Virus record (IMG/VR): IMGVR_UViG_2636415906_000001 | DNA: 18,744 nucleotides | Strand: one strand, 5' to 3' | Source: a virus | Lineage: Duplodnaviria; Heunggongvirae; Uroviricota; Caudoviricetes | Shown: one piece after another, positions 2,469 to 16,358 of the stretch | Layout of the letters: every line of letters begins with the position of its first letter | How positions within the stretch are numbered: position 1 is the stretch's first letter | The notes under the pieces: generated by a model | What the model was told of the DNA's origin: nothing | Database searches by the model: none | What the model saw: only the letters and a program-made list of their open reading frames with translations | Translations under genes and position numbers: made by a program

Positions 2469-3431
2469 TTATTCAATATCAAATAAATGCCTTGGGAAAC
2501 CGTTATTATCAGGTAATCCCATGGCTGTCAGGTTACATCCTGGTAAGTTAGGCTTGTTATCTACAAGGTTGGCAACTTTTTTTATCCAGTCAGATCCCGG
2601 TCCAATTTTTTTCACTAAAAACCATAACACAGCGATCATTCCGTACATTCTTTCGTACGCATCATCATTCATATTTAATTGCTCAAAGTACGGCTCATTT
2701 GGCAAAGGCATTAATCTTGGTTCGTTGACCTTGTTCCAGATGCGTGAATGGTGAGCGCACCGATTCCTTAGCACATTCATTGCGCTAAGCCAGTTTTGGA
2801 AGATAGCTCCATTGCCTGCCGCTATCCCTAGCCTAGATAGTATCCTGTTGCGATAGCTGTCTTTTAGCATCGCATAATACTTTGACATTAAGCCGAAGTC
2901 CCATACTTCAATAACCACCCAGAAAGGAAGACCTTCGTACTTGTTTTCATGCCATTTGATAAAGTCTTCGCGACTTTTAGCAATCTCGGCATTATGTTTA
3001 TTTATCCATTCTTCTCTGGCGCTTGGGCGACCATGGGAACGTGGTCTAAAGTGTTTTGGATTTATTAGCGAGTCATCAAGATATGCTAAAGGAGATATCT
3101 TACCAAGCTCATGAGCAATAACTGACCGAACATAAACCTCAATGCGTTCTAACGCATTCATCATCTGCAAACGCAGATTTTTATCGAATAAATAGAGGTC
3201 ATATACTGCGCGAAAATTAGTACCTGGACGAACCTGATCGAGTCTGGTTCTAATATTGTCTGTTGTTATATGGGGGATTCGGCAGGGGTACCAAAAGCCT
3301 GATAATCGGTAGTAGCCTACTTGTGAGATTTTCTTGATAGCATGTTCGCGATCTGGCACATCCATACCCCGAGACAGCAATAAATCGACAAGTTCATCAT
3401 ATTCTTTATGAACCTTAACCGGAACAGCCAT
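2469..3431 (-). CDS. Abortive-infection protein, Abi_2 family (AbiD/AbiF/AbiD1-like), 320 aa
   Basis: Abi_2 hallmarks as I recall them: N-terminal EYDELVDLLLSRGM...GYYRLSGFW and the central motif LRNRCAHHSRIWN. The gene is visibly AT-rich compared with the core operon. Confidence 0.85.
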   Translation of the reverse strand: MAVPVKVHKEYDELVDLLLSRGMDVPDREHAIKKISQVGYYRLSGFWYPCRIPHITTDNIRTRLDQVRPGTNFRAVYDLYLFDKNLRLQMMNALERIEVYVRSVIAHELGKISPLAYLDDSLINPKHFRPRSHGRPSAREEWINKHNAEIAKSREDFIKWHENKYEGLPFWVVIEVWDFGLMSKYYAMLKDSYRNRILSRLGIAAGNGAIFQNWLSAMNVLRNRCAHHSRIWNKVNEPRLMPLPNEPYFEQLNMNDDAYERMYGMIAVLWFLVKKIGPGSDWIKKVANLVDNKPNLPGCNLTAMGLPDNNGFPRHLFDIE

Positions 3432-3810
3432 ACAAAAGGTTTCCTACCTCCAGATACAAGAAGGCCCGGCCATAACAATTTCTCATCTAAGACAAGATAA
3501 AGCCAGGGGGCCGGGCTCAGTTGAGTGTAACTCTATCCGAAGTTATCCACATGTCAATGCACAGTTACTTAGGAAACTAACATAGGTACTATCATCACTC
3601 ACGAAAAACCACTATATGTGGTTTTTATTCATATCGTTATCCACTACAGGCTGTGTCAATAACTTTTACCTATTAATTGGGTAATTTCTACATTTTCCTA
3701 TGCTGGCTAGTTTCTCTACTGAAAAGTTGGCACTCCTTAATCGCTTTTCGGTTAATACTATCGGTCTTCATATTGCCAGCAGCATACGCCATCCGATAAT
3801 TTCGATGCTA

Positions 3811-4112
3811 CGCGCGCGTACTTGTCGCAAAATATCAGGCAAAGGCCAGATTCAGAACGTCGTGATAACCACCAGCACAACATGAGATGTCATGTAACAC
3901 GATTTATCACATCAGATACATGTGATTGGTGTACCCGCATAAAACATCGTCATAGCGCGTCCTGTGCGCATATACGCCGATAATCAACACATCACCACCA
4001 CTCTGTCTCGTGTAGAGAACAGTTTCATGGTATCCCCCGCCATCGTGTGCGTACTGGTCGGACGTAGTTGCAAAATTTTTTGCAACTGATACCCCTCGCG
4101 CGCGTACTTGTC
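3811..4112. repeat. Perfect 16-bp direct repeat cgcgcgcgtacttgtc at 3811-3826 and 4097-4112
   Basis: Read directly. The copies flank about 270 bp of non-coding DNA in the gap between the Abi gene and the membrane-protein gene. An inverted aatttcga/tcgaaatt pair lies adjacent to the copies. Confidence 0.7.
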
Positions 4113-4305
4113 TCGAAATTGGTGTTTTGCTGTGGCAGTGATATCAGAAAAATCTTCCTGTTTCACATAAAGCGGATATGCGCGTACTGTAACGGCCCCA
4201 TCAACTGGGAGCGGATTTGAAATCCCGACCCAAGCTATGTACCAAATGCCATGTCTTGGATATATGATGATTGCCATTCTAAACAAAGCTAAAGGGAGGG
4301 TTGGT

Positions 4306-4662
4306 GTGAGGGGGCAGGCAGTTATAATTATTTTGTTGGGTTTAATTGTCGCAAAGTTATACCCGACTTTATCGATGGTGTTTTTTGCCATTATTGGCGC
4401 AGCCATCTTTACTTATATCATTAAACATACCGCCTTGTGGTTCTATAAAATTGATATAGTTCAGAAGTTTGTACGTCCTGTGTCAATGTTATTACTAGCA
4501 TTAATACCAATTGGTGTTGCTTATGTAATTGATGTTTTTTACCCTTCGGACACTGAAAGGTGGTTGATAGTTTTGTATTGTTATATTGGTGTAGCTCTCT
4601 TTTGTGGATTTCATTGGTGTTTCGAAAAGATCAATGACTCTATTTCAAAGAATAAAGATTGA
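4306..4662 (+). CDS. Small integral membrane protein (about 118 aa, 3-4 predicted TM helices), GTG start
   Basis: Strong RBS AGGGAGG 5 nt upstream of GTG 4306. Hydrophobic stretches (IIILLGLIVAKL, FFAIIGAAIFTYII, LLLALIPIGVAYVIDVF, LIVLYCYIGVALFCGF). AT-rich. Ends 20 bp from the convergent 705-aa gene. Confidence 0.45.
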   Translation: MRGQAVIIILLGLIVAKLYPTLSMVFFAIIGAAIFTYIIKHTALWFYKIDIVQKFVRPVSMLLLALIPIGVAYVIDVFYPSDTERWLIVLYCYIGVALFCGFHWCFEKINDSISKNKD

Positions 4663-4676
4663 GGCCATCCGTGGCC
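4663..4676. terminator. Short GC hairpin (GGCCA-tccg-TGGCC) between convergent genes; possible weak bidirectional terminator
   Basis: 5-bp stem with a 4-nt loop exactly between the stop codons at 4660-4662 (plus strand) and 4682-4684 (minus strand). No clear U-tract. Confidence 0.2.
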
Positions 4677-4681
4677 ATTCA

Positions 4682-6799
4682 CTAGTCATTATCTGGATCA
4701 TTAGATAGCCAAGTAATGATGCCCAGTCTGGCGATGGTCCGTTTTTCCTGTTCAGGAAGAGAGTTAAAAAAACTCTTCCATTGAGGGGAGCGCCTGATAC
4801 GTGAATCAACAATGTGCCCAGGCGCTTTTCCGTGTAGATTTTTTACTGCGCTCTGGAAGGCTGGCGAGGCAATTAATTTATCCGCAGCATCAGCCGCCCC
4901 TGCTCCACCAGCTAATCGAGCTTTACTCGCCAATCTTGCTCCAATATCAGCCCCAGCAATGGCTCCAAGCGATCCAAAATGAGCGCCTACCATCGTGCCT
5001 ATTTTTTGAATGTGTTTTGCTGCTAGTTCGTATGGAGCTGTTACCCGATTAAATCTGTTTACAAACTCATTCAGCTTACCAGTAGATATTTCATGCGCTT
5101 TAGCATTTTTTATTGCTCTGGCAACTTTGTATACATCATATAGTCCGCTCATTGTTTCTTTTGGCAAATGTTCAGCCAAAGTCTTTAGCTGTCCACTGTG
5201 TTGCAAGTTTTGCCACCAATCTGCAAAGCCAGATGGATTAAAGTCGGCCCCACGCTTCCCAGAGGAAAGCATATCTCTTAATGCTGTTCCTACTAGCTCC
5301 CTTCGCAATGTTCTTGATGGAGTATTTTGCATAATCTCACGAAACCCTCTCGCATCACCTTTTGCCATAGATTGAAGAGAATTCGTTACTTTATACGCTA
5401 TATCCCCATTAAGTGTTTTCCCGCGAAGATTTACCATTTGCCTTTCTAAGTTTTTTCTCATAGCTACAAGGCGTTGTGCGACTTCGAAATCTCGCAAGTA
5501 TCCAGTATTGGATAAGACAGATTTTTGGTCTTCAGCTAAAGCTCCATATAGTCTTGATAGCGCTTCTTTATCAGCATCTTTGTATGGCCCCTGCTTTTTA
5601 TTTAGGGCATCACCAACTAAACGCCTTTGCCTGTTTAAATTTGCATACGTTAGGATGCTATCTGGGCCGGGGTTTATTGCTGTAAAAACTCGCTTTTCTA
5701 TTGGGTCAAGATTATCCCACCCTCCTAAATCATCAGCGATTTTTTCCAGCATAGTGCTTGTGTTATTTGCTTCGACTTTTGTTCTTGGTGATAGAGCGGA
5801 ATCAACACGTTTATATAACTGATCACTACGGTTTTTTAGTGCTTCCATTCTACTATTTATCTGATAAATATATTTTTCGCTCATAGCTAACGCATCTGGC
5901 GCACCAGCAACATCATCGATTATCTTGCCAGCACTAGAGGCTAATTCGCTTATTGCTTTATCTTCTTGAGCTTTTAACGCTGATCCTGTCCGTGACTTTA
6001 GGGCTTGCTCTACAGCTTGGTATTGCTCATTTCCTGATAAATGAGAAGGAAGAACTGAATCAACATGAAGCCTATTTGCAGCCTCAACAATTTCTTTCTG
6101 AGGTTTTAGATCTAGCCCTTCAAGCGAAGAGGCAAGATTTGGGTTGCCTTGTGCAGATAACTTACGAATTTTCTCTTCGGCAGGAGTAATCCCCTCAATA
6201 TCTGGAATCGAAGAAACATTCTTCTTGGTTAATTTCCCAGCTATTTTATTAATTGCAGGGCCAGCAAGTTCGGCTACAGGGCCAGCCACAGCGCCAATAG
6301 CAGCGCCGGAAGCAACATCGCTATTTGTTCCATTGGCTACAATAGCCCCTTCTCCAGCACCAAGCCCTGCGGCGGCAGCCAGTCTTGCCGCCCCTTTGGG
6401 AACCTGAGAAATAATCCCACCACCACTAACAAATGGCGCTGCTTGTCCAACGAACTCACCAACATCTTGTGCGGTTGATGGTTTTGCCGCTAACTTCTGC
6501 TGTAGAGACTGAATTGCGGCTTGCTCTTCTGGTGTCATATCCTGAAACAGGCCAACACCTTTACCAACATCCATCAATCCACTGAGAACGCCATACATAA
6601 AACGGTCGAAACCGTTAGCATTATTAACAACATTTTCCTGTCTGGAATTTTCCTCTGGTGAAACCAAAGGTGATTGCTGCTGTTCTGGTTGGGCATCAAG
6701 CACAAAACCATCAGGAAGCTGTGAACTATCAGGAAACTGTGAGTTATCAGGTTGTTCATCGAGCACAAAACCTTCCGGTAAGATTACATTTGCTGCCAT
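4682..6799 (-). CDS. Large hypothetical protein (705 aa): acidic repeat N-terminus, Gly/Ala-rich segment, coiled-coil-like middle; no recognisable enzymatic motif
   Basis: Long uninterrupted ORF with ATG start at 6797-6799, overlapping the upstream 451-aa gene by 16 nt (translational coupling). N-terminus LPEGFVLDEQPDNSQFPDSSQLPDGFVLDAQPEQQQ; AAAAGLGAGEGAIVANG...GAVAGPVAELAGP tract. No signal peptide or Walker motif seen. Confidence 0.8.
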   Translation of the reverse strand: MAANVILPEGFVLDEQPDNSQFPDSSQLPDGFVLDAQPEQQQSPLVSPEENSRQENVVNNANGFDRFMYGVLSGLMDVGKGVGLFQDMTPEEQAAIQSLQQKLAAKPSTAQDVGEFVGQAAPFVSGGGIISQVPKGAARLAAAAGLGAGEGAIVANGTNSDVASGAAIGAVAGPVAELAGPAINKIAGKLTKKNVSSIPDIEGITPAEEKIRKLSAQGNPNLASSLEGLDLKPQKEIVEAANRLHVDSVLPSHLSGNEQYQAVEQALKSRTGSALKAQEDKAISELASSAGKIIDDVAGAPDALAMSEKYIYQINSRMEALKNRSDQLYKRVDSALSPRTKVEANNTSTMLEKIADDLGGWDNLDPIEKRVFTAINPGPDSILTYANLNRQRRLVGDALNKKQGPYKDADKEALSRLYGALAEDQKSVLSNTGYLRDFEVAQRLVAMRKNLERQMVNLRGKTLNGDIAYKVTNSLQSMAKGDARGFREIMQNTPSRTLRRELVGTALRDMLSSGKRGADFNPSGFADWWQNLQHSGQLKTLAEHLPKETMSGLYDVYKVARAIKNAKAHEISTGKLNEFVNRFNRVTAPYELAAKHIQKIGTMVGAHFGSLGAIAGADIGARLASKARLAGGAGAADAADKLIASPAFQSAVKNLHGKAPGHIVDSRIRRSPQWKSFFNSLPEQEKRTIARLGIITWLSNDPDND

Positions 6800-8127
6800 T
6801 TTCCGTTCCTGTAAATGATTTTCTGACCAGTTTTAGGGTTGGTTGCCGTTGCGCCTTCTGATATTCCTCCGGTTGCCGCTTTTGCCTGTCCAGTGCCAGC
6901 CTGTGATGTAGGCTGCCCGGAAACATCGTCAAATAGCTTCGCTTTCCTTCTTTCAAGGCTTTTTCTTAGCCCCTGAGGAATAGTTTCTCCATATGTATCG
7001 AGATACTCGTCAACCTGCTGGTTAAACTGCTGCCCCATAGCATTGGCGTTGATTTTTGCGGCGTTAACAATGTTATCCTTTGCCTCCTGCGACAGGCCGT
7101 TTCCAGCATTAAGCTGGTCTATGTATCCTTTGATTTGTCCCCATATGCCATCAGACCGCATTACCTGAACCTGTTCGCCTTCACGAACGACTGACTGCGG
7201 GTCAAGAGATTTCATGTAGTTGAAGATAATCCCAAGTTGGGCAGCGCCAGTATTTACCTTGCTAAGGGCTTGCAGAGAGTTTGCCGCCGCTCTGACAGAG
7301 TTATAATTTTTGCCAAAATTGGTAATGTCAGAATTTAATCCCTTAATTAAGTCTGCTGACGGCTTACCTTTTTGCCCCAGCTCCATTAGCTTCAATCCCA
7401 TCTCATCTGAGTGAATTTGTGCTCGCTGAGCCCTGTCTAGTTGAGCGTTCTGGATATTTGCCCATCCTCTCGCGTTCTCCATGTCAGCCTGACGCATACT
7501 TTCATCCAGTCGCCCTTGCTCAAGTCGACGACCTTCCATTTGATCTTTGATATCGAAATACTTCTCATGACCGAGAGAAAACAGCGCCAGATTACCTGCG
7601 AAATGCTGGAAGCCCTGCGGGTCATTAACCTGCATTTCAGCAATAGTTTCTGGAGGGATACCTAAACGACGCATCTCCTGCTCATTATCCATCATGAACC
7701 TGCCAAATGCGCCCTGACCAAGCGATGAGGCTACCTGTGCTTTGAGCGCCAGATTGCCATAATCATCCCTTTGAGCATCATCGACATAACTCATCCCTTT
7801 ACGGACTTCCTCAAACTCTTCTGGGAATGCTGTAATAAGATTACGCATCTGCTCCCTGTCACCGGACGCATAAGCATCTGCATAACCTTTCTGGAATGCC
7901 GCTTTACGCTCCTGCTGTTGCTGCTGCTTATAAATATCAGCAACTCCAGCCAGACCACGAAGACCTGTCAGAGCAACGTTATTTGCACCTGATCGAGCCA
8001 GTTCATTGTTTTCGCGGATCAGACCAAGCGTTGCGTTAATGTCGCTTGCCTTTGGCGCATTCTCATTTTGCGTACCGATGCCAGCCAGAAAACCACCAGA
8101 ATTAATACCCTGTTGCCACGTAGCCAT
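6784..8127 (-). CDS. Hypothetical coiled-coil, Gln-rich protein (about 447 aa from ATG 8127; ORF track extends to GTG 8139)
   Basis: Long ORF; the ATG at 8125-8127 overlaps the stop of the upstream 57-aa ORF. QQQQQ run and low-complexity A/Q/N/G-rich sequence. No enzymatic motif recognised. Confidence 0.8.
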   Translation of the reverse strand: MATWQQGINSGGFLAGIGTQNENAPKASDINATLGLIRENNELARSGANNVALTGLRGLAGVADIYKQQQQQERKAAFQKGYADAYASGDREQMRNLITAFPEEFEEVRKGMSYVDDAQRDDYGNLALKAQVASSLGQGAFGRFMMDNEQEMRRLGIPPETIAEMQVNDPQGFQHFAGNLALFSLGHEKYFDIKDQMEGRRLEQGRLDESMRQADMENARGWANIQNAQLDRAQRAQIHSDEMGLKLMELGQKGKPSADLIKGLNSDITNFGKNYNSVRAAANSLQALSKVNTGAAQLGIIFNYMKSLDPQSVVREGEQVQVMRSDGIWGQIKGYIDQLNAGNGLSQEAKDNIVNAAKINANAMGQQFNQQVDEYLDTYGETIPQGLRKSLERRKAKLFDDVSGQPTSQAGTGQAKAATGGISEGATATNPKTGQKIIYRNGKWQQM

Positions 8128-8131
8128 AAAT

Positions 8132-8305
8132 TTACCCACGTCCAGTTAAAGTGTAAGCCAGCGCCTTATCCATTAATCCCCGAGCAATTTCGTGGATCGT
8201 TGGCGCAACTCCTACCTCTGATTTTTTACGCTGCTCCTCCTGAATTTTCTTTATCGCTTCCATTTGCTTCTCACTTATCAATACTGGCTTTACTGAAATA
8301 GCCAT
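8132..8305 (-). CDS. Small protein (57 aa, MAISVKPVLISEKQMEAIKKIQEEQRKKSEVGVAPTIHEIARGLMDKALAYTLTGRG), first gene of the operon; possibly RHH-like
   Basis: Below the ORF-track length cutoff; translated by hand. Strong RBS AAGGGGG 4-5 nt upstream of ATG 8303-8305. The stop overlaps the start of the 451-aa gene. Confidence 0.5.
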   Translation of the reverse strand: MAISVKPVLISEKQMEAIKKIQEEQRKKSEVGVAPTIHEIARGLMDKALAYTLTGRG

Positions 8306-8320
8306 AACGCCCCCTTATAA

Positions 8321-8344
8321 CTGTATAAAACAACAGTCATTATA
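8321..8344 (-). promoter_or_regulatory. Candidate SOS-regulated promoter: perfect -10 TATAAT (8339-8344, minus strand) followed by a LexA-like box CTGT-N8-ACAG (8321-8336)
   Basis: Plus strand aaCTGTATAAAACAACAGtc resembles known SOS boxes such as umuDC, and overlaps the predicted transcription start about 30 nt upstream of the 57-aa ORF. No convincing -35 was found. Confidence 0.4.
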
Positions 8345-12405: not shown

Positions 12406-13008
12406 TTAGTGCGTCACTGGTGCTTCTGGGATGCCGTTTTCGTTTAGTTCGGCAATAAAGCTGTTGTGAAGATCGGCAAGCACTTCTCGCCCAAACGAAG
12501 TGAGTGTTCCCTGTTCGACATCGAACATGTTGCTGTAAAAAATGATGGCATTCTTTGTTCCGACATCAACACCATATTTCTCGATCATTGCGCCCTCAAT
12601 GTTGTTTGCCATAGCGAGGCGCTCTGCTACTGGATACAGCGGCATGGCGACGATGCCATTGGAATAAACAGAAACCACGGAATGATTGCCACTGTCATCA
12701 ATAATGCTGACGGTGCCGTTTTCCTTTCTCATTTCATTGATGAATGCTGTTGCTATCAGCCAGCGCCACATAATCACGTGATGCTGTGATGTGTAATCGA
12801 AATATCCCTGGTTGCCGCCATCGGCTATAGCGAGATGTATTGACATACCTTCATCTGGTTTATCGTCATAATCCCCGGCATCCAGACGATTTACGGCATC
12901 AATATATGAGACGGTCTCAACGCGTTCTGTCATGCCATCGTTGCTGCGGTGCATGATGTTTACGCCGTCAGGCGTTGCTTCTGCCTGGAAAGTTAAGAAA
13001 TTATTCAT
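12406..13008 (-). CDS. Hypothetical protein (about 200 aa from ATG 13008; ORF track extends to 13113)
   Basis: The ATG at 13006-13008 overlaps the upstream gene's stop by 8 nt. Located 12 nt upstream of the primase start. Confidence 0.6.
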   Translation of the reverse strand: MNNFLTFQAEATPDGVNIMHRSNDGMTERVETVSYIDAVNRLDAGDYDDKPDEGMSIHLAIADGGNQGYFDYTSQHHVIMWRWLIATAFINEMRKENGTVSIIDDSGNHSVVSVYSNGIVAMPLYPVAERLAMANNIEGAMIEKYGVDVGTKNAIIFYSNMFDVEQGTLTSFGREVLADLHNSFIAELNENGIPEAPVTH

Positions 13009-13222
13009 GTTTCGCCTCGCCTGAATGATTCTGTAACTCATATTTGCCCAACAATTCGTCTGCTTCCTGAATAGCTTCTGGTACGCCATTGAGCAGTGAC
13101 ATAACCGCGCCAATCATTAACTTGTCTCTGTTGCTGGGGCTGGCCCCTTCAAGCCAGAACCCTAAAACAGCCTGAACCTGTTCGATGCGACATTGCGCTT
13201 CAATGAGCTGGATGTTGGTCAT
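13001..13222 (-). CDS. Hypothetical small protein (73 aa)
   Basis: ORF with a 4-nt ATGA-type overlap with the upstream gene; part of the coupled operon. Confidence 0.55.
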   Translation of the reverse strand: MTNIQLIEAQCRIEQVQAVLGFWLEGASPSNRDKLMIGAVMSLLNGVPEAIQEADELLGKYELQNHSGEAKHE

Positions 13223-13482
13223 TTCGCACTCTCCGCATCGATTAAACTGATATCTATCAGGGAGGTAACTTTTTGTAGCCAGCTATTGATTACTGTCGCC
13301 TGTTCCCCTCCCACCGAGGGAATAATCTCATTCATCACATGAACCAGACCTGTGCGCGCTCTGGTAAGCCGTTCAGTCGCGCAATCTGCGGGAGTGAATG
13401 TGTCTGGATATGGCTCTTCGCGCCCCAGCAATGATTCAATTTCCAGCTCACACGGATGACGATAAATTAAGTTGATATTCAT
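13219..13482 (-). CDS. Hypothetical small protein (87 aa)
   Basis: ORF with GGGGGTG RBS 5 nt upstream of ATG; 4-nt overlaps with both neighbours. Confidence 0.55.
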   Translation of the reverse strand: MNINLIYRHPCELEIESLLGREEPYPDTFTPADCATERLTRARTGLVHVMNEIIPSVGGEQATVINSWLQKVTSLIDISLIDAESAK

Positions 13483-13673
13483 TTTTCACCCCCAAGAATT
13501 ACCAGCTCGGCACGGGCATCGTTAACCAAAGATGAGCACGCTTTAATCGCATCCACGACATCAGCAGCGTCCATTTCTTCAGCCGAAAGACTGACAGCAA
13601 CCAGGACATCCGCTGCTTGCTCGATTAATTGAAGTGCGGACGTAAGGCGAGGGGTATTAATTGAGTTATTCAT
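13479..13673 (-). CDS. Hypothetical small acidic protein (about 64 aa from ATG 13673)
   Basis: The internal ATG at 13671-13673 overlaps the stop (13666-13668) of the upstream 342-aa ORF; the ORF track's longer version would overlap that gene. Confidence 0.5.
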   Translation of the reverse strand: MNNSINTPRLTSALQLIEQAADVLVAVSLSAEEMDAADVVDAIKACSSLVNDARAELVILGGEK

Positions 13674-14694
13674 TGGTTGCCCCCGTTTTGCATGGCATTT
13701 GTCCACCTTCCAGCAGGAAATGAACGTCACGAACGGCGAGATCCAATATCGCGAGTAACGCCTTCAGCCTTTCGTCTCGTGAGGGAGAGTTGCTCACCAG
13801 AATGTCGTTAATCACTTCTGTCAGTGTGATGATCTGGCTTGTGCGTTCGAGGGGATCCATATGCACATCGTAGGTTTTAATCATGTGCCACCTCCATGCG
13901 GATACGACCAGCAAAAAAGCAGACGTGATCGCGCACCAGAGAACGGCGAGCATCGCGTTCAGACTCGGCAGCAATATGATGAATTTTGGCGGTAATTGTC
14001 GGGCAATCGCGGCGAACTGCGGCGATAATCCAGATAAATTGCGGTTTTTGGGTAGGGGTAGTAGCCAGCATGTGGCAGCCTCCTTGATTGATGGTTTATA
14101 GCCACCGCCCAAGAGACCAATCTTGCTGGCGGTGGACTGTACGGAGTTGGCCTTACTGGCAATCAAGGAAACCAGCCTACCCGAAGGTAGCCCCATACAG
14201 CCCACCATTGATAAGGTGTGCGTGTGCGCCGATACAAAAAAAGACGCTGGCGCGTCATGTATCGCCTCGATTGTCAGCGGGAGGCCAATCCCGGCACCCG
14301 TTTTATGAGGTGCCTTATAACCATAAACCGTGTTGCCGCATAACGGCAAGCTCTTTTTTATGGACTCCGAAAACTCACTATTGGAAGAACCAGAAGCACA
14401 GTACATCGCGCTCATTTCGTTAACGTCACGCGCATGGACGAAGGTTTTTGTGGAGTCACTACGCGAGAAGAGAAAGCCATCTACGACCAGAAATTCTCTG
14501 GCGCAGCCGCTGACCTTCTCAACGCTAACACCATCGACCGTAATTTCTGACATGGTTAAGGCATCCGCTCCTACCACCAGCAAATGACAAACTTTGCTTG
14601 TATCTGCTGTATTAATGCCTGACTTTGCTGTCATATTGCTGGATTTTGGCGACATACCAGCCAGTGAAAATATCTTCTTCTGGACGGTTAGCAT
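13666..14694 (-). CDS. Hypothetical protein (342 aa); Ser/Thr/Gly-rich N-terminal two-thirds, hydrophobic segment, C-terminal helical tail
   Basis: Long uninterrupted ORF with GGAGG RBS 8 nt upstream of ATG 14694. No family recognised. Composition changes along its length, so a sequencing frameshift or fused domains cannot be excluded. Confidence 0.5.
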
Positions 14695-14870
14695 TTGTTA
14701 ACCTCCGCGAACTCCTTCATGAAACGTGCCAGCGGTTGTACGCATGGCGATTGATACCCGTCGCGATAAAACGTCACTCGGTTGTGAGACACGCTTTCGA
14801 CAGTAACGAGTGCTCCGTGGGCACCTTTGTAGCGTTTTTGTGGTTGTGGTGTTCCTGTCGGCTTAAACAT
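14688..14870 (-). CDS. Hypothetical small protein (60 aa, [60 protein letters not shown])
   Basis: GGAGG RBS 7 nt upstream of ATG 14870. The start overlaps the AntA-like gene's 3' end by 8 nt and the stop overlaps the next gene's start. Confidence 0.45.
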   Translation of the reverse strand: MFKPTGTPQPQKRYKGAHGALVTVESVSHNRVTFYRDGYQSPCVQPLARFMKEFAEVNKC

Positions 14871-15696
14871 GGACCGCCTCCAGACGCTTGGCGAGCCAGC
14901 GTTGCGACAGGCGGGTGAGTTCTCCTTTGCGCTGCCCATATTCCATGCCCATATCAATTAACGTGATATTGGTGCTTTCGAGATATGAGAGGTGCTCAAG
15001 CTGTTCTGCGTTCATATGGTCGCGAGGTTCGCCAGAATAGCCATTTATCCGCGCCCACTGCTTAGCAGTTAGCCCACCAAGAACGATACGAGAAATCATA
15101 TTGCTCTCGTTTGTGTAGTGGTGTTGCTGCGTCGTTTTCCCCTGCTCGGCACGGGCCATGTTCAGCGCATCGCACATTGGCTTAAAGTTGTTTGCGGCAC
15201 TGATACGGGCTTTTAGCTGGCGACGATAGCGGGCGGCGATTTCAGGCACGGTACGCTGTAATTCTTCCTCGCACTGGATGAAATAACGACGGATAGCGCG
15301 ACCCTGATCATTGCGTTCGATCATTGCCAGTTCTTTCGCCATTCCGACACTTAACAGATAGTCTTTGCCGGGTCTGCCAGAGTGCTTAATCTTGCTGTAA
15401 GCCGCGCCATTCGGGCTTTTCCCCAAATTTGGGGAAATTGTTTTATGGACTGAGTAATCGTGCCCAATGGTGAAGTCATATTCAGAGATGCGATCAGTGA
15501 TCCATGTAGAGAAGTCTTTTCCCACGCCCAACGCTTTGTGTAACGCTTTTGCGCTAACAATATTGGTTTCACGCCCACCTATATGACCAGAAATAACCGG
15601 GACAATTGCGGCAAATTCATTACCGTTAATTGTGCCCAGAGAGGCGTTCAGATGAGGGGCGGCCTCAGAAATTAATCTGCTTTTTTCGATGTTCAT
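14863..15696 (-). CDS. Phage antirepressor-like protein, AntA/AntB (Rha-like) N-terminal domain with a C-terminal extension (277 aa)
   Basis: SAKALHKALGVGKDFSTWITDRISEYDFTIGHDY...GRPGKDYLLSVGMAKELAMIERNDQGRAIRRYFIQCEEEL follows the AntA-domain pattern as I recall it. GGAG RBS 9 nt upstream of ATG. Confidence 0.7.
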   Translation of the reverse strand: MNIEKSRLISEAAPHLNASLGTINGNEFAAIVPVISGHIGGRETNIVSAKALHKALGVGKDFSTWITDRISEYDFTIGHDYSVHKTISPNLGKSPNGAAYSKIKHSGRPGKDYLLSVGMAKELAMIERNDQGRAIRRYFIQCEEELQRTVPEIAARYRRQLKARISAANNFKPMCDALNMARAEQGKTTQQHHYTNESNMISRIVLGGLTAKQWARINGYSGEPRDHMNAEQLEHLSYLESTNITLIDMGMEYGQRKGELTRLSQRWLAKRLEAVHV

Positions 15697-15708
15697 TTTC
15701 AGTCTCCG

Positions 15709-16140
15709 TTAGGCGGCGTTAAACGCGTCCGGGTAGAGTTTCAGAATGTCGGCAATTTCCTGCTGAGAAAGTCCGTTGTGATCATTTATGTTCGCAAGAT
15801 GGTTAACATGAGTGATCACTTTCAGAACATCACCACGGCAGGAGAAACGGTAGCGAAGGTGTGTTCCGATACCATCAGGATTCTTTTCGTCGATACGCTC
15901 CAGAGTGATTCCAAGCTGGCGTTCTAACTCTGTTGCATAGTTACGACCAGAAGACAGACGGCAGTAGCGAAGAATGTCATTTTCTGTCCATCCCTCTATA
16001 CCAGTACGCAGCATATAGACTCGGGCACGATGCTTTTTCGGTGTGCGCTTTGGTGCTTGAAGGGATTTTGTAAGGGGCGTAATATCAGATACGCGAATAT
16101 CTGAATTAGCCGCCTGTAATGGGCGGTTTTTCTTTTCCAT
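15709..16140 (-). CDS. Hypothetical basic protein (143 aa)
   Basis: The ORF start overlaps the alpA stop (ATGA). No family recognised. Confidence 0.6.
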   Translation of the reverse strand: MEKKNRPLQAANSDIRVSDITPLTKSLQAPKRTPKKHRARVYMLRTGIEGWTENDILRYCRLSSGRNYATELERQLGITLERIDEKNPDGIGTHLRYRFSCRGDVLKVITHVNHLANINDHNGLSQQEIADILKLYPDAFNAA

Positions 16141-16358
16141 CAGGCCACCTTCCCGCGGCGTTCTGCCAGCCAGTTATTAATTTCCACCGCATCAAACGCA
16201 GTCACGTTATCTGTTAGCTTCACTGGGCGTGGAAGAGTGCCATTTTTAACCCATCTATCAATAGTAGGCAGTGAAACACCTAGCAATTCCGGCATGCGAA
16301 AGCGACGGATGTATCCAGTTGTTGGGATAGCTGATGATGCTGGCTTGTGTGCTGTCAT
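16140..16358 (-). CDS. alpA: AlpA-family prophage transcriptional regulator / excisionase-like protein (72 aa)
   Basis: IRRFRMPELLGVSLPTIDRWVKNGTLPRPVKLTDNVTAFDAVEINNWL matches the AlpA (Phage_AlpA) HTH pattern. Position between int and the primase operon is typical of P4-like and CP4-57-like elements. Confidence 0.8.
   Translation of the reverse strand: MTAHKPASSAIPTTGYIRRFRMPELLGVSLPTIDRWVKNGTLPRPVKLTDNVTAFDAVEINNWLAERRGKVA

Follow-up and report, generated by a model that had tools for sequence, protein, structure and literature searches.

On one strand of an 18,744-nucleotide stretch of DNA from a virus of the Caudoviricetes (IMG/VR record IMGVR_UViG_2636415906_000001; the whole stretch is referred to as the window), a small open reading frame with hydrophobic segments terminates a few bases from the stop codon of a 705-codon gene on the opposite strand. 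This raises the question of which function the small gene fulfils and whether that function is connected to the larger neighbour. A preliminary description of the locus, made from the letters of the sequence, had likened the arrangement to that of immunity genes located next to SOS-controlled genes for pore-forming bacteriocins. Here, we analyse the gene, its neighbours, its relatives and the element which carries it.

Results

The gene and its putative membrane-spanning product

The gene and its ribosome-binding site are located as follows:
4306..4662, plus strand: coding sequence of a small, putative membrane protein of 118 aa, in a position which we refer to as the "sieA slot" (from the open reading frame, hydropathy, an AlphaFold2 model and homologues).
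4293..4299, plus strand: Shine-Dalgarno sequence AGGGAGG, 6 nt before GTG 4306 (read directly from the sequence).

The stop-free frame harbouring the gene extends from 4237 to 4662 on the plus strand with the stop codon at 4660-4662. The product is labelled "hypothetical protein" by PGAP, which places the start such that a protein of 118 aa results in one genome and a protein of 131 aa, starting from ATG 4267, in others. The start with the strongest support is GTG 4306, in view of the spacing of the ribosome-binding site, the starts of the homologues, the edge of DNA identity and the 118-aa PGAP call. The AGGGAGG sequence is kept in sister islands ahead of differing slot genes, and prophage homologues possess ATG or GTG at the equivalent codon following AGGAGG or GGGAGG. 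Furthermore, DNA identity between the window and its sister islands amounts to more than 97% through the GTG plus one base and is then lost, even where the gene that follows is unrelated. Longer variants starting from ATG 4237 or ATG 4267 were discarded since the upstream "MMIAILNKAKGRVGV" stretch is common to non-homologous slot genes.

A Kyte-Doolittle plot of the 118-aa protein displays four hydrophobic segments (residues ~4-19, 22-39, 58-77 and 86-106), and the AlphaFold2 model (mean pLDDT 73, pTM 0.41) consists of four helices comprising residues 2-18, 20-47, 50-78 and 84-115. The three to four hydrophobic helices of the preliminary description can thus be specified as four. Its account of size, AGGGAGG ribosome-binding site, GTG start and convergent orientation is borne out by open reading frame, hydropathy and sequence; the stop codon does lie close to that of the 705-aa gene on the opposite strand, the gap being 19 nt rather than 20. 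The loop formed by residues 40-57 carries a net positive charge, that formed by residues 78-85 is acidic and the tail, which ends in FHWCFEKINDSISKNKD, is charged, a distribution which fits a topology with both termini inside the cell.

The G+C content of the open reading frame amounts to 34.7% compared to 46% in the window. At this composition 118 stop-free codons are expected by chance with a probability of ~2.5e-4 per start. Since, in addition, an unrelated prophage encodes an indel-free homologue of 118 aa sharing 48% identity, the gene is real and not a chance open reading frame. That the frame is non-functional, whether arisen by chance or as a decaying remnant, is a reading for which the inconsistent PGAP starts (131 versus 118 aa) and the lack of an assigned family might be adduced. 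We regard it as highly improbable: not only does the chance probability count against it, but homologues with 26-48% identity retain length, start position, strong ribosome-binding site and hydrophobic pattern, the N-terminal motif GQxxIIILLxLxVxKLY is conserved, closer homologues share a C-terminal FHWCFxKxN, and 82 of 86 genomes contain an intact copy with ≥99% identity.

The convergent neighbour and its operon

The opposite strand harbours the following features:
4682..6799, minus strand: 705-aa homologue of P22 gp16-type ejection (DNA-transfer) proteins (phrog_6704, phrog_770, tblastn).
6784..8139, minus strand: 451-aa homologue of P22 gp20-type ejection proteins (PF16928, phrog_917).
8132..8305, minus strand: 57-aa leader open reading frame of the ejection-protein operon (annotated as WP_001018522.1 in sister islands).
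8321..8336, no strand assigned: LexA box CTGTATAAAACAACAG ahead of the ejection-protein operon (exact match to CTGT-N8-ACAG).

For the 705-aa protein, the PHROGs search yielded phrog_6704 (E 1e-174) as well as phrog_770, annotated as "DNA transfer protein" (E 1e-50). In tblastn the protein shares 41-63% identity with the gene-16 products of the Lederbergviruses Sf101, E212 and Kapi1, and its identity to gp16 of the prophage at locus L006 amounts to 62%. The 451-aa protein matches PF16928, Inj_translocase, the P22 injectosome translocase gp20 (E 3e-73), as well as phrog_917 (E 3e-132), and is 53% identical to the N-terminal 212 aa of P22 gp20. The 57-aa leader, for which family searches yielded no match, is conserved in the EcCIMP1-like PICI family. 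A TATAAT hexamer immediately precedes the LexA box, of which all nine PICI loci retrieved possess an identical copy. A perfect LexA box thus precedes the operon of the 57-aa, 451-aa and 705-aa frames, in accordance with the earlier remark that these genes are SOS-controlled.

The bacteriocin analogy, on the other hand, does not hold. Both large neighbours are phage ejection proteins and neither is a toxin, no bacteriocin with a pore-forming domain adjoins the small gene, and the window is an EcCIMP1-like PICI by its sequence (see below) rather than a toxin locus; bacteriocin immunity was discarded on these grounds. Among colicin-immunity families no match to the 118-aa protein was obtained, the only Pfam signal being a sub-threshold one for Bax1-I (18.8 bits against a cut-off of 34.1) and the only NCBIfam signal a sub-threshold one for CBO0543 (23.7 bits against 35). 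What persists of the suggested tie between the membrane protein and the 451/705 pair is the strict synteny; most likely, the link consists in superinfection exclusion aimed at the ejection proteins of an incoming phage rather than in immunity to a self-made toxin, the 705-aa gp16-type protein representing the presumed kind of target.

Own P22-type ejection genes behind a LexA box are a property of several EcCIMP1-like satellites (window 6784-8336; L014, L015, L016 and L020). The window copy comprises gp20 and gp16 only, without a homologue of gp7 or gp14, and the elements EcCIMP1, NC101 and that of strain 6409 encode DUF2824, gp7, gp20 and gp16. In the SEC470 island gp20 (L026 11474-12817) contains an internal stop, and the small membrane-protein gene and gp16 are intact.

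The carrier element

A near-identical copy of the island is present in E. coli MSB1_8G between dinD and yicC. Its annotated gene order reads integrase, HTH, antirepressor, ash, primase, two small genes, ejection genes, 118-aa open reading frame, Abi and PerC. In the regulatory and replication region, a segment of 3.7 kb (window 12408-16150) shares 94% nucleotide identity with EcCIMP1; the C-terminal part of the primase, the LexA-box region and the block upstream of the slot are further shared. Based on the MSB1_8G annotation and the identity to EcCIMP1, the window is, as judged from its sequence, an EcCIMP1-like satellite (PICI), with a backbone of integrase, AlpA, antirepressor, ash and primase inserted into the chromosome. 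EcCIMP1 itself, a PICI of E. coli MP1, is mobilised by a P22-like helper phage, Kapi1, against which it adds superinfection immunity (Pick et al., ISME J 2025, PMC11773190).

Several further features of the island and of related elements were noted. Positions 1-664, at the left end of the window, are occupied by the host gene dinD with its own LexA box at 649-664, and a PerC-family gene is found at 1465-1752 on the minus strand, the island being situated between dinD and yicC. The accessory region harbours an AbiD-family (Abi_2) abortive-infection gene (2469-3431, minus strand) which adjoins a 151-aa gene (2012-2467) and is present in some island copies and missing from others. C4 antisense RNA (79 bits) and isrK (65 bits) are predicted at 14125-14313 on the minus strand within a region annotated as ash family, as in P4-like elements. 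Ultimately, the JGI metagenome contig L007 joins satellite-type AlpA and the upstream block to a complete P22-like virion module (needle, gp10, gp4, coat, scaffold, portal). The junction runs through a P0014-type slot gene and gp16 which are 99.8% identical to those of strain 6409, and the contig results either from recombination between satellite and phage or from a chimeric assembly.

A small family convergent with gene 16

An exhaustive profile search of 1.84 billion representative proteins retrieved only 13 members of the family, and a word-indexed search 14. Barring a few shorter fragments, the members measure 115-147 aa and start with M-x-[GA]-Q-x-[IV]-I-I-I-L-L-x-L-x-V-x-K-L-Y. No relative was found in the GTDB species-representative genomes scanned, nor did tblastn of the 118-aa protein against 50,697 phage records yield a match. 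Pfam, PHROGs, PADLOC and NCBIfam report nothing above threshold for the 118-aa protein, nor for SieA itself, and a holin or a member of another family known to these databases was dismissed on this account. A GtrA-like four-helix O-antigen conversion protein was likewise rejected as Pfam reveals no GtrA and no glycosyltransferase genes are located nearby. Compared to viral predicted structures, the AlphaFold2 model retrieves generic helical hairpins only, all with E >0.5, its pTM being too low for more.

In 11 of the 12 loci of relatives outside the window the gene lies directly downstream of, and convergent with, a homologue of gene 16; in the twelfth, from an O111:H8 strain, the ejection genes are lost. 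Including that of the window, six distinct alleles are found within ~30 nt of the convergent gene-16 homologue:
Window: the 118-aa gene described here.
L006: allele P0008.
L007-L012 and strain 6409: P0014 type, with which L020 is grouped.
L017: allele P0020.
L018: allele P0026.
L023-L025 (IMG/VR): a 118-aa variant with 39% identity.

True P22-like prophages are represented by L006, L017 and L023-L025, while the other loci include PICIs. These prophages display the order gp14-7-20-16, slot, mnt/arc/ant, tailspike, such that the family gene is situated between genes 16 and 9 with mnt-like genes on the same strand upstream of it; sieA is defined by this very position. Slot alleles are not strictly paired with one class of gp16, as 118-aa variants are found together with gp16 of the window class as well as of the P22 class.

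The window allele is present in 86 of 5426 complete E. coli genomes, always as a single copy, and each of the 86 carriers also contains the adjoining 3' end of the 705-aa gene. Three of the 86 copies were inspected and represent the same kind of island at two integration sites.

Exchange with a SieA homologue

SieA, of which types A, B and C are distinguished, belongs to the Salmonella phage P22 system (Leavitt et al., mBio 2024, PMC10883804). In P22-like prophages, all known sieA genes are situated in the interval from gene 16 to gene 9, and mutations which enable escape from SieA map to the C-terminal regions of gp16 and gp20 (PMC10883804). In P22, gene 16 is followed after 22 nt by the convergent sieA. 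The window exhibits the same layout, its small gene ending 19 nt from the stop of the gp16 homologue; the window island possesses no gene 9, but the homologues in prophages lie between genes 16 and 9. The position of the window gene is accordingly equivalent to that of sieA.

In the SA186 island, behind an identical upstream block, ribosome-binding site and GTG, the slot contains a gene for a 204-aa SieA homologue which possesses the RYPGEA motif and aligns with P22 SieA over 108 aa at 29% identity (E 9e-8), whereas the slot of the PICIs of strain 6409 and L008 is occupied by a 116-aa member of the window-protein family. Identity of the flanking DNA amounts to 97% on the side which ends with the GTG and to 95.5% on the other side, which extends from the stop codon across gp16 and gp20. 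Since only the slot gene differs between near-identical flanks, a SieA homologue and a member of the window family replace one another exactly within a single expression slot. A comparison of the window with SA186 reveals a larger exchanged block (window 4311-7528), which includes gp16 and the C-terminal half of gp20 in addition to the slot gene, while the N-terminal 212 aa of gp20 are 97% identical. The swapped parts of gp16 and gp20 thus match the regions to which SieA-escape mutations map.

In spite of this allelic relationship the 118-aa protein is not a member of the SieA family, as judged from BLASTP, motif inspection and hhalign. BLASTP of the 118-aa protein yields E 1.7 against P22 SieA and E 0.63 against the SA186 SieA homologue, hhalign of the family against a four-member SieA alignment a probability of 1%. 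The window protein lacks the conserved cytoplasmic motif FxRYPxEAxxFNK, which SieA proteins carry close to their C terminus and which is present as RYPGEA throughout the SieA alignment. SieA proteins are integral to the inner membrane with three to four transmembrane helices; for the 118-aa protein, four hydrophobic helices are predicted. In the literature, we found no description of the family, of its lack of kinship to SieA or of its carriage by PICIs together with ejection genes.

The borders of the exchanged segment

Two further features delimit the slot:
3746..4310, plus strand: PICI-specific conserved block upstream of the slot gene (94-98% identity among islands).
4664..4675, no strand assigned: 12-nt palindrome GCCATCCGTGGC in the 19-nt gap between the stop codons (one match in the window versus 0.01 expected).

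The upstream block shares its 94-98% identity with EcCIMP1, SA186, strain 6409 and L007, and the homology to other islands stops one base past the GTG. Part of it occurs in 534 of 5426 complete E. coli genomes, and no match was found in the 50,697 phage records. Presumably, the block constitutes the promoter and the 5' leader of the slot gene; the sole strong sigma-70-like site predicted on its plus strand is located at 3773-3800. A structured RNA is not indicated, as the block displays no excess folding energy (z -0.36) and contains no Rfam family. The block further includes a run of C at 4034-4038 whose length varies from five to seven depending on the locus and a perfect inverted repeat, AGTTGCAAAA-TT-TTTTGCAACT, at 4066-4087. 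An unannotated minus-strand frame of 140 aa (3984-4406) has no family match.

On the other side, GCCRTCCNTGGC is found just past the gene-16 stop in P22 (L002 4323-4334), Kapi1 (L004 6201-6212), EcCIMP1, NC101, SA186, strain 6409, L007-L012 and L017; in L016 the palindrome is located at 12560-12571. It is kept whatever the class of gp16 or the nature of the next gene and forms the right edge of the exchanged block. An intrinsic terminator was discounted since the palindrome is missed by a terminator scan and forms only a weak hairpin (z -0.76). It may represent a joint formed by recombination or the point at which the late operon ends.

Discussion

Proposed function

The reading we lean towards is that the 118-aa protein would be a non-homologous functional analogue of SieA. 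It is founded on the P22 sieA layout of the locus, on the six gene-16-adjoining alleles, on the cassette swap and on the linkage to the 705-aa gene in all 86 genomes. Moreover, the block swapped between the window and SA186 covers the SieA-escape regions, and EcCIMP1 confers superinfection immunity to Kapi1. The gene also opposes an SOS-controlled operon, has its own ribosome-binding site and a low G+C content. Orientation, own ribosome-binding site and low G+C content of this kind are typical of prophage genes acquired as add-ons. The protein would be expressed from the integrated island without induction and would sit in the cytoplasmic membrane, probably with both termini inside, its four helices being connected by very short loops. 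There it might prevent the gp20/gp16 conduit of an incoming phage from assembling or from opening. A P22-like podovirus would then still adsorb while its DNA stayed outside, which is how P22 SieA acts.

Counting against a SieA analogue is that the protein shares neither homology nor motif nor architecture with SieA. Besides, the slot is variable and also accommodates non-membrane genes, for instance an Arc-like one in Sf101 and, in Kapi1 and EcCIMP1, genes for secreted or lipoprotein-like products. With occupants this diverse, function cannot be deduced from the position alone, which we consider suggestive but not conclusive for exclusion. Nor can the phenotype of EcCIMP1 be credited to the 118-aa gene, as EcCIMP1 lacks it. 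In EcCIMP1 the slot encodes a 232-aa protein (L016 11749-12447, minus strand, identical to L015 9436-10134, minus strand) which contains the lipoprotein signal LLAGC, has no family match and is a candidate for the superinfection immunity of that island. In the slot of phage E212 we observe an unannotated frame of 75 aa (L003 6118-6345, minus strand) with two hydrophobic helices which overlaps the gene-16 stop in convergent orientation and is unrelated to the window family.

Alternative functions

The main rival holds that the gene encodes an accessory membrane protein of prophages and satellites which resides in the insertion-tolerant region between genes 16 and 9 and has another job, such as exclusion of another type of phage, abortive infection together with the AbiD-family gene or a change in the physiology of the host envelope. 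The presence of unrelated slot genes in different phages is what one would expect from such a region, the AbiD-family gene is only ~870 bp away (2469-3431), and the protein resembles no exclusion factor in sequence or fold. Nevertheless, we take this reading to be rather unlikely. In phages as well as PICIs the six alleles keep within 30 nt of the gene-16 stop whatever lies on the far side, the Abi gene is missing from most of these contexts, and the precise swap with a SieA homologue behind the same ribosome-binding site and start codon suggests that both functions are interchangeable.

Alternatively, in an adapted version of the idea in the preliminary description, the protein might protect the producing cell from its own membrane-active ejection proteins gp16 and gp20, which build up after SOS induction, in the manner of an immunity or antitoxin-like partner. 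The tight linkage to gp16, the LexA box of the ejection operon and the exchange of slot gene, gp16 and C-terminal half of gp20 as one block between the window and SA186 would all be in line with this. Yet many P22-like phages produce gp16 and gp20 without any family member (tblastn, 50,697 phage records), and the slot gene is swapped while gp16 and gp20 remain 95% identical. It is furthermore oriented against the ejection operon instead of being placed behind the LexA box, and in the SEC470 island it is intact although gp20 is a pseudogene. Self-protection thus appears quite improbable, and exclusion of incoming P22-like phages remains the reading we prefer.

Implications

Entry exclusion encoded by prophages at the sieA locus is an already known kind of function. 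Beyond this, we tentatively propose, as a possibility that is on the whole rather doubtful, that a new family unrelated to SieA provides SieA-like exclusion on satellites equipped with their own gp20 and gp16, and that the exclusion gene, gp16 and the C-terminal half of gp20 are exchanged as cassettes in a satellite-phage arms race over the conduit for DNA entry. If true, this cassette reading would define a mechanism class for satellite-mediated superinfection immunity. To our knowledge, SieA is the only protein family known to block the conduit formed by P22-type ejection proteins. A second, smaller and unrelated blocker would offer an independent handle on the passage of gp20/gp16 across the inner membrane. 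It would also mean that satellites, and not prophages alone, encode entry exclusion in combination with ejection proteins of their own, and superinfection immunity of the EcCIMP1 type would narrow down to a short list of slot genes. Should the protein turn out not to act in phage exclusion, an ordinary accessory membrane protein would be left.

Comparison with known systems

With pore-forming colicin immunity the locus has in common a small, predicted multi-pass membrane protein whose gene is convergent with a larger one at a distance of few bases, the larger gene being part of an operon bearing a LexA box. Unlike in colicin loci, however, this large gene encodes a phage ejection protein, a lysis gene is lacking and the locus belongs to a phage satellite.

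EcCIMP1 and the window island share the order int, AlpA, antirepressor, ash, primase, ejection-protein genes, slot and PerC. They differ in their ejection module, which comprises DUF2824, gp7, gp20 and a 906-aa gp16 in EcCIMP1 but gp20 and a gp16 of another class in the window. In addition, the lipoprotein-like 232-aa gene in the slot of EcCIMP1 is placed on the other strand and does not belong to the 118-aa family, and the AbiD-family gene of the window island sets it apart from EcCIMP1.

T4 Imm and HK97 gp15 are small inner-membrane proteins which block phage entry. The proposed function would resemble theirs in that a small, hydrophobic protein expressed by a resident element halts genome entry after adsorption. 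Sequence, genomic context and delivery machine are different, such that this likeness serves as a lead only.

The closest parallel is SieA. Both genes occupy the slot directly after and convergent with gene 16, in prophages on the strand of mnt, both products are small multi-pass membrane proteins (in case of the window protein by prediction), and the same 12-nt palindrome follows the gene-16 stop. In contrast to SieA, which measures 162-212 aa and contains a long soluble loop, the window protein is predicted to pack four helices tightly into 118 aa, and its gene resides on a PICI instead of a prophage.
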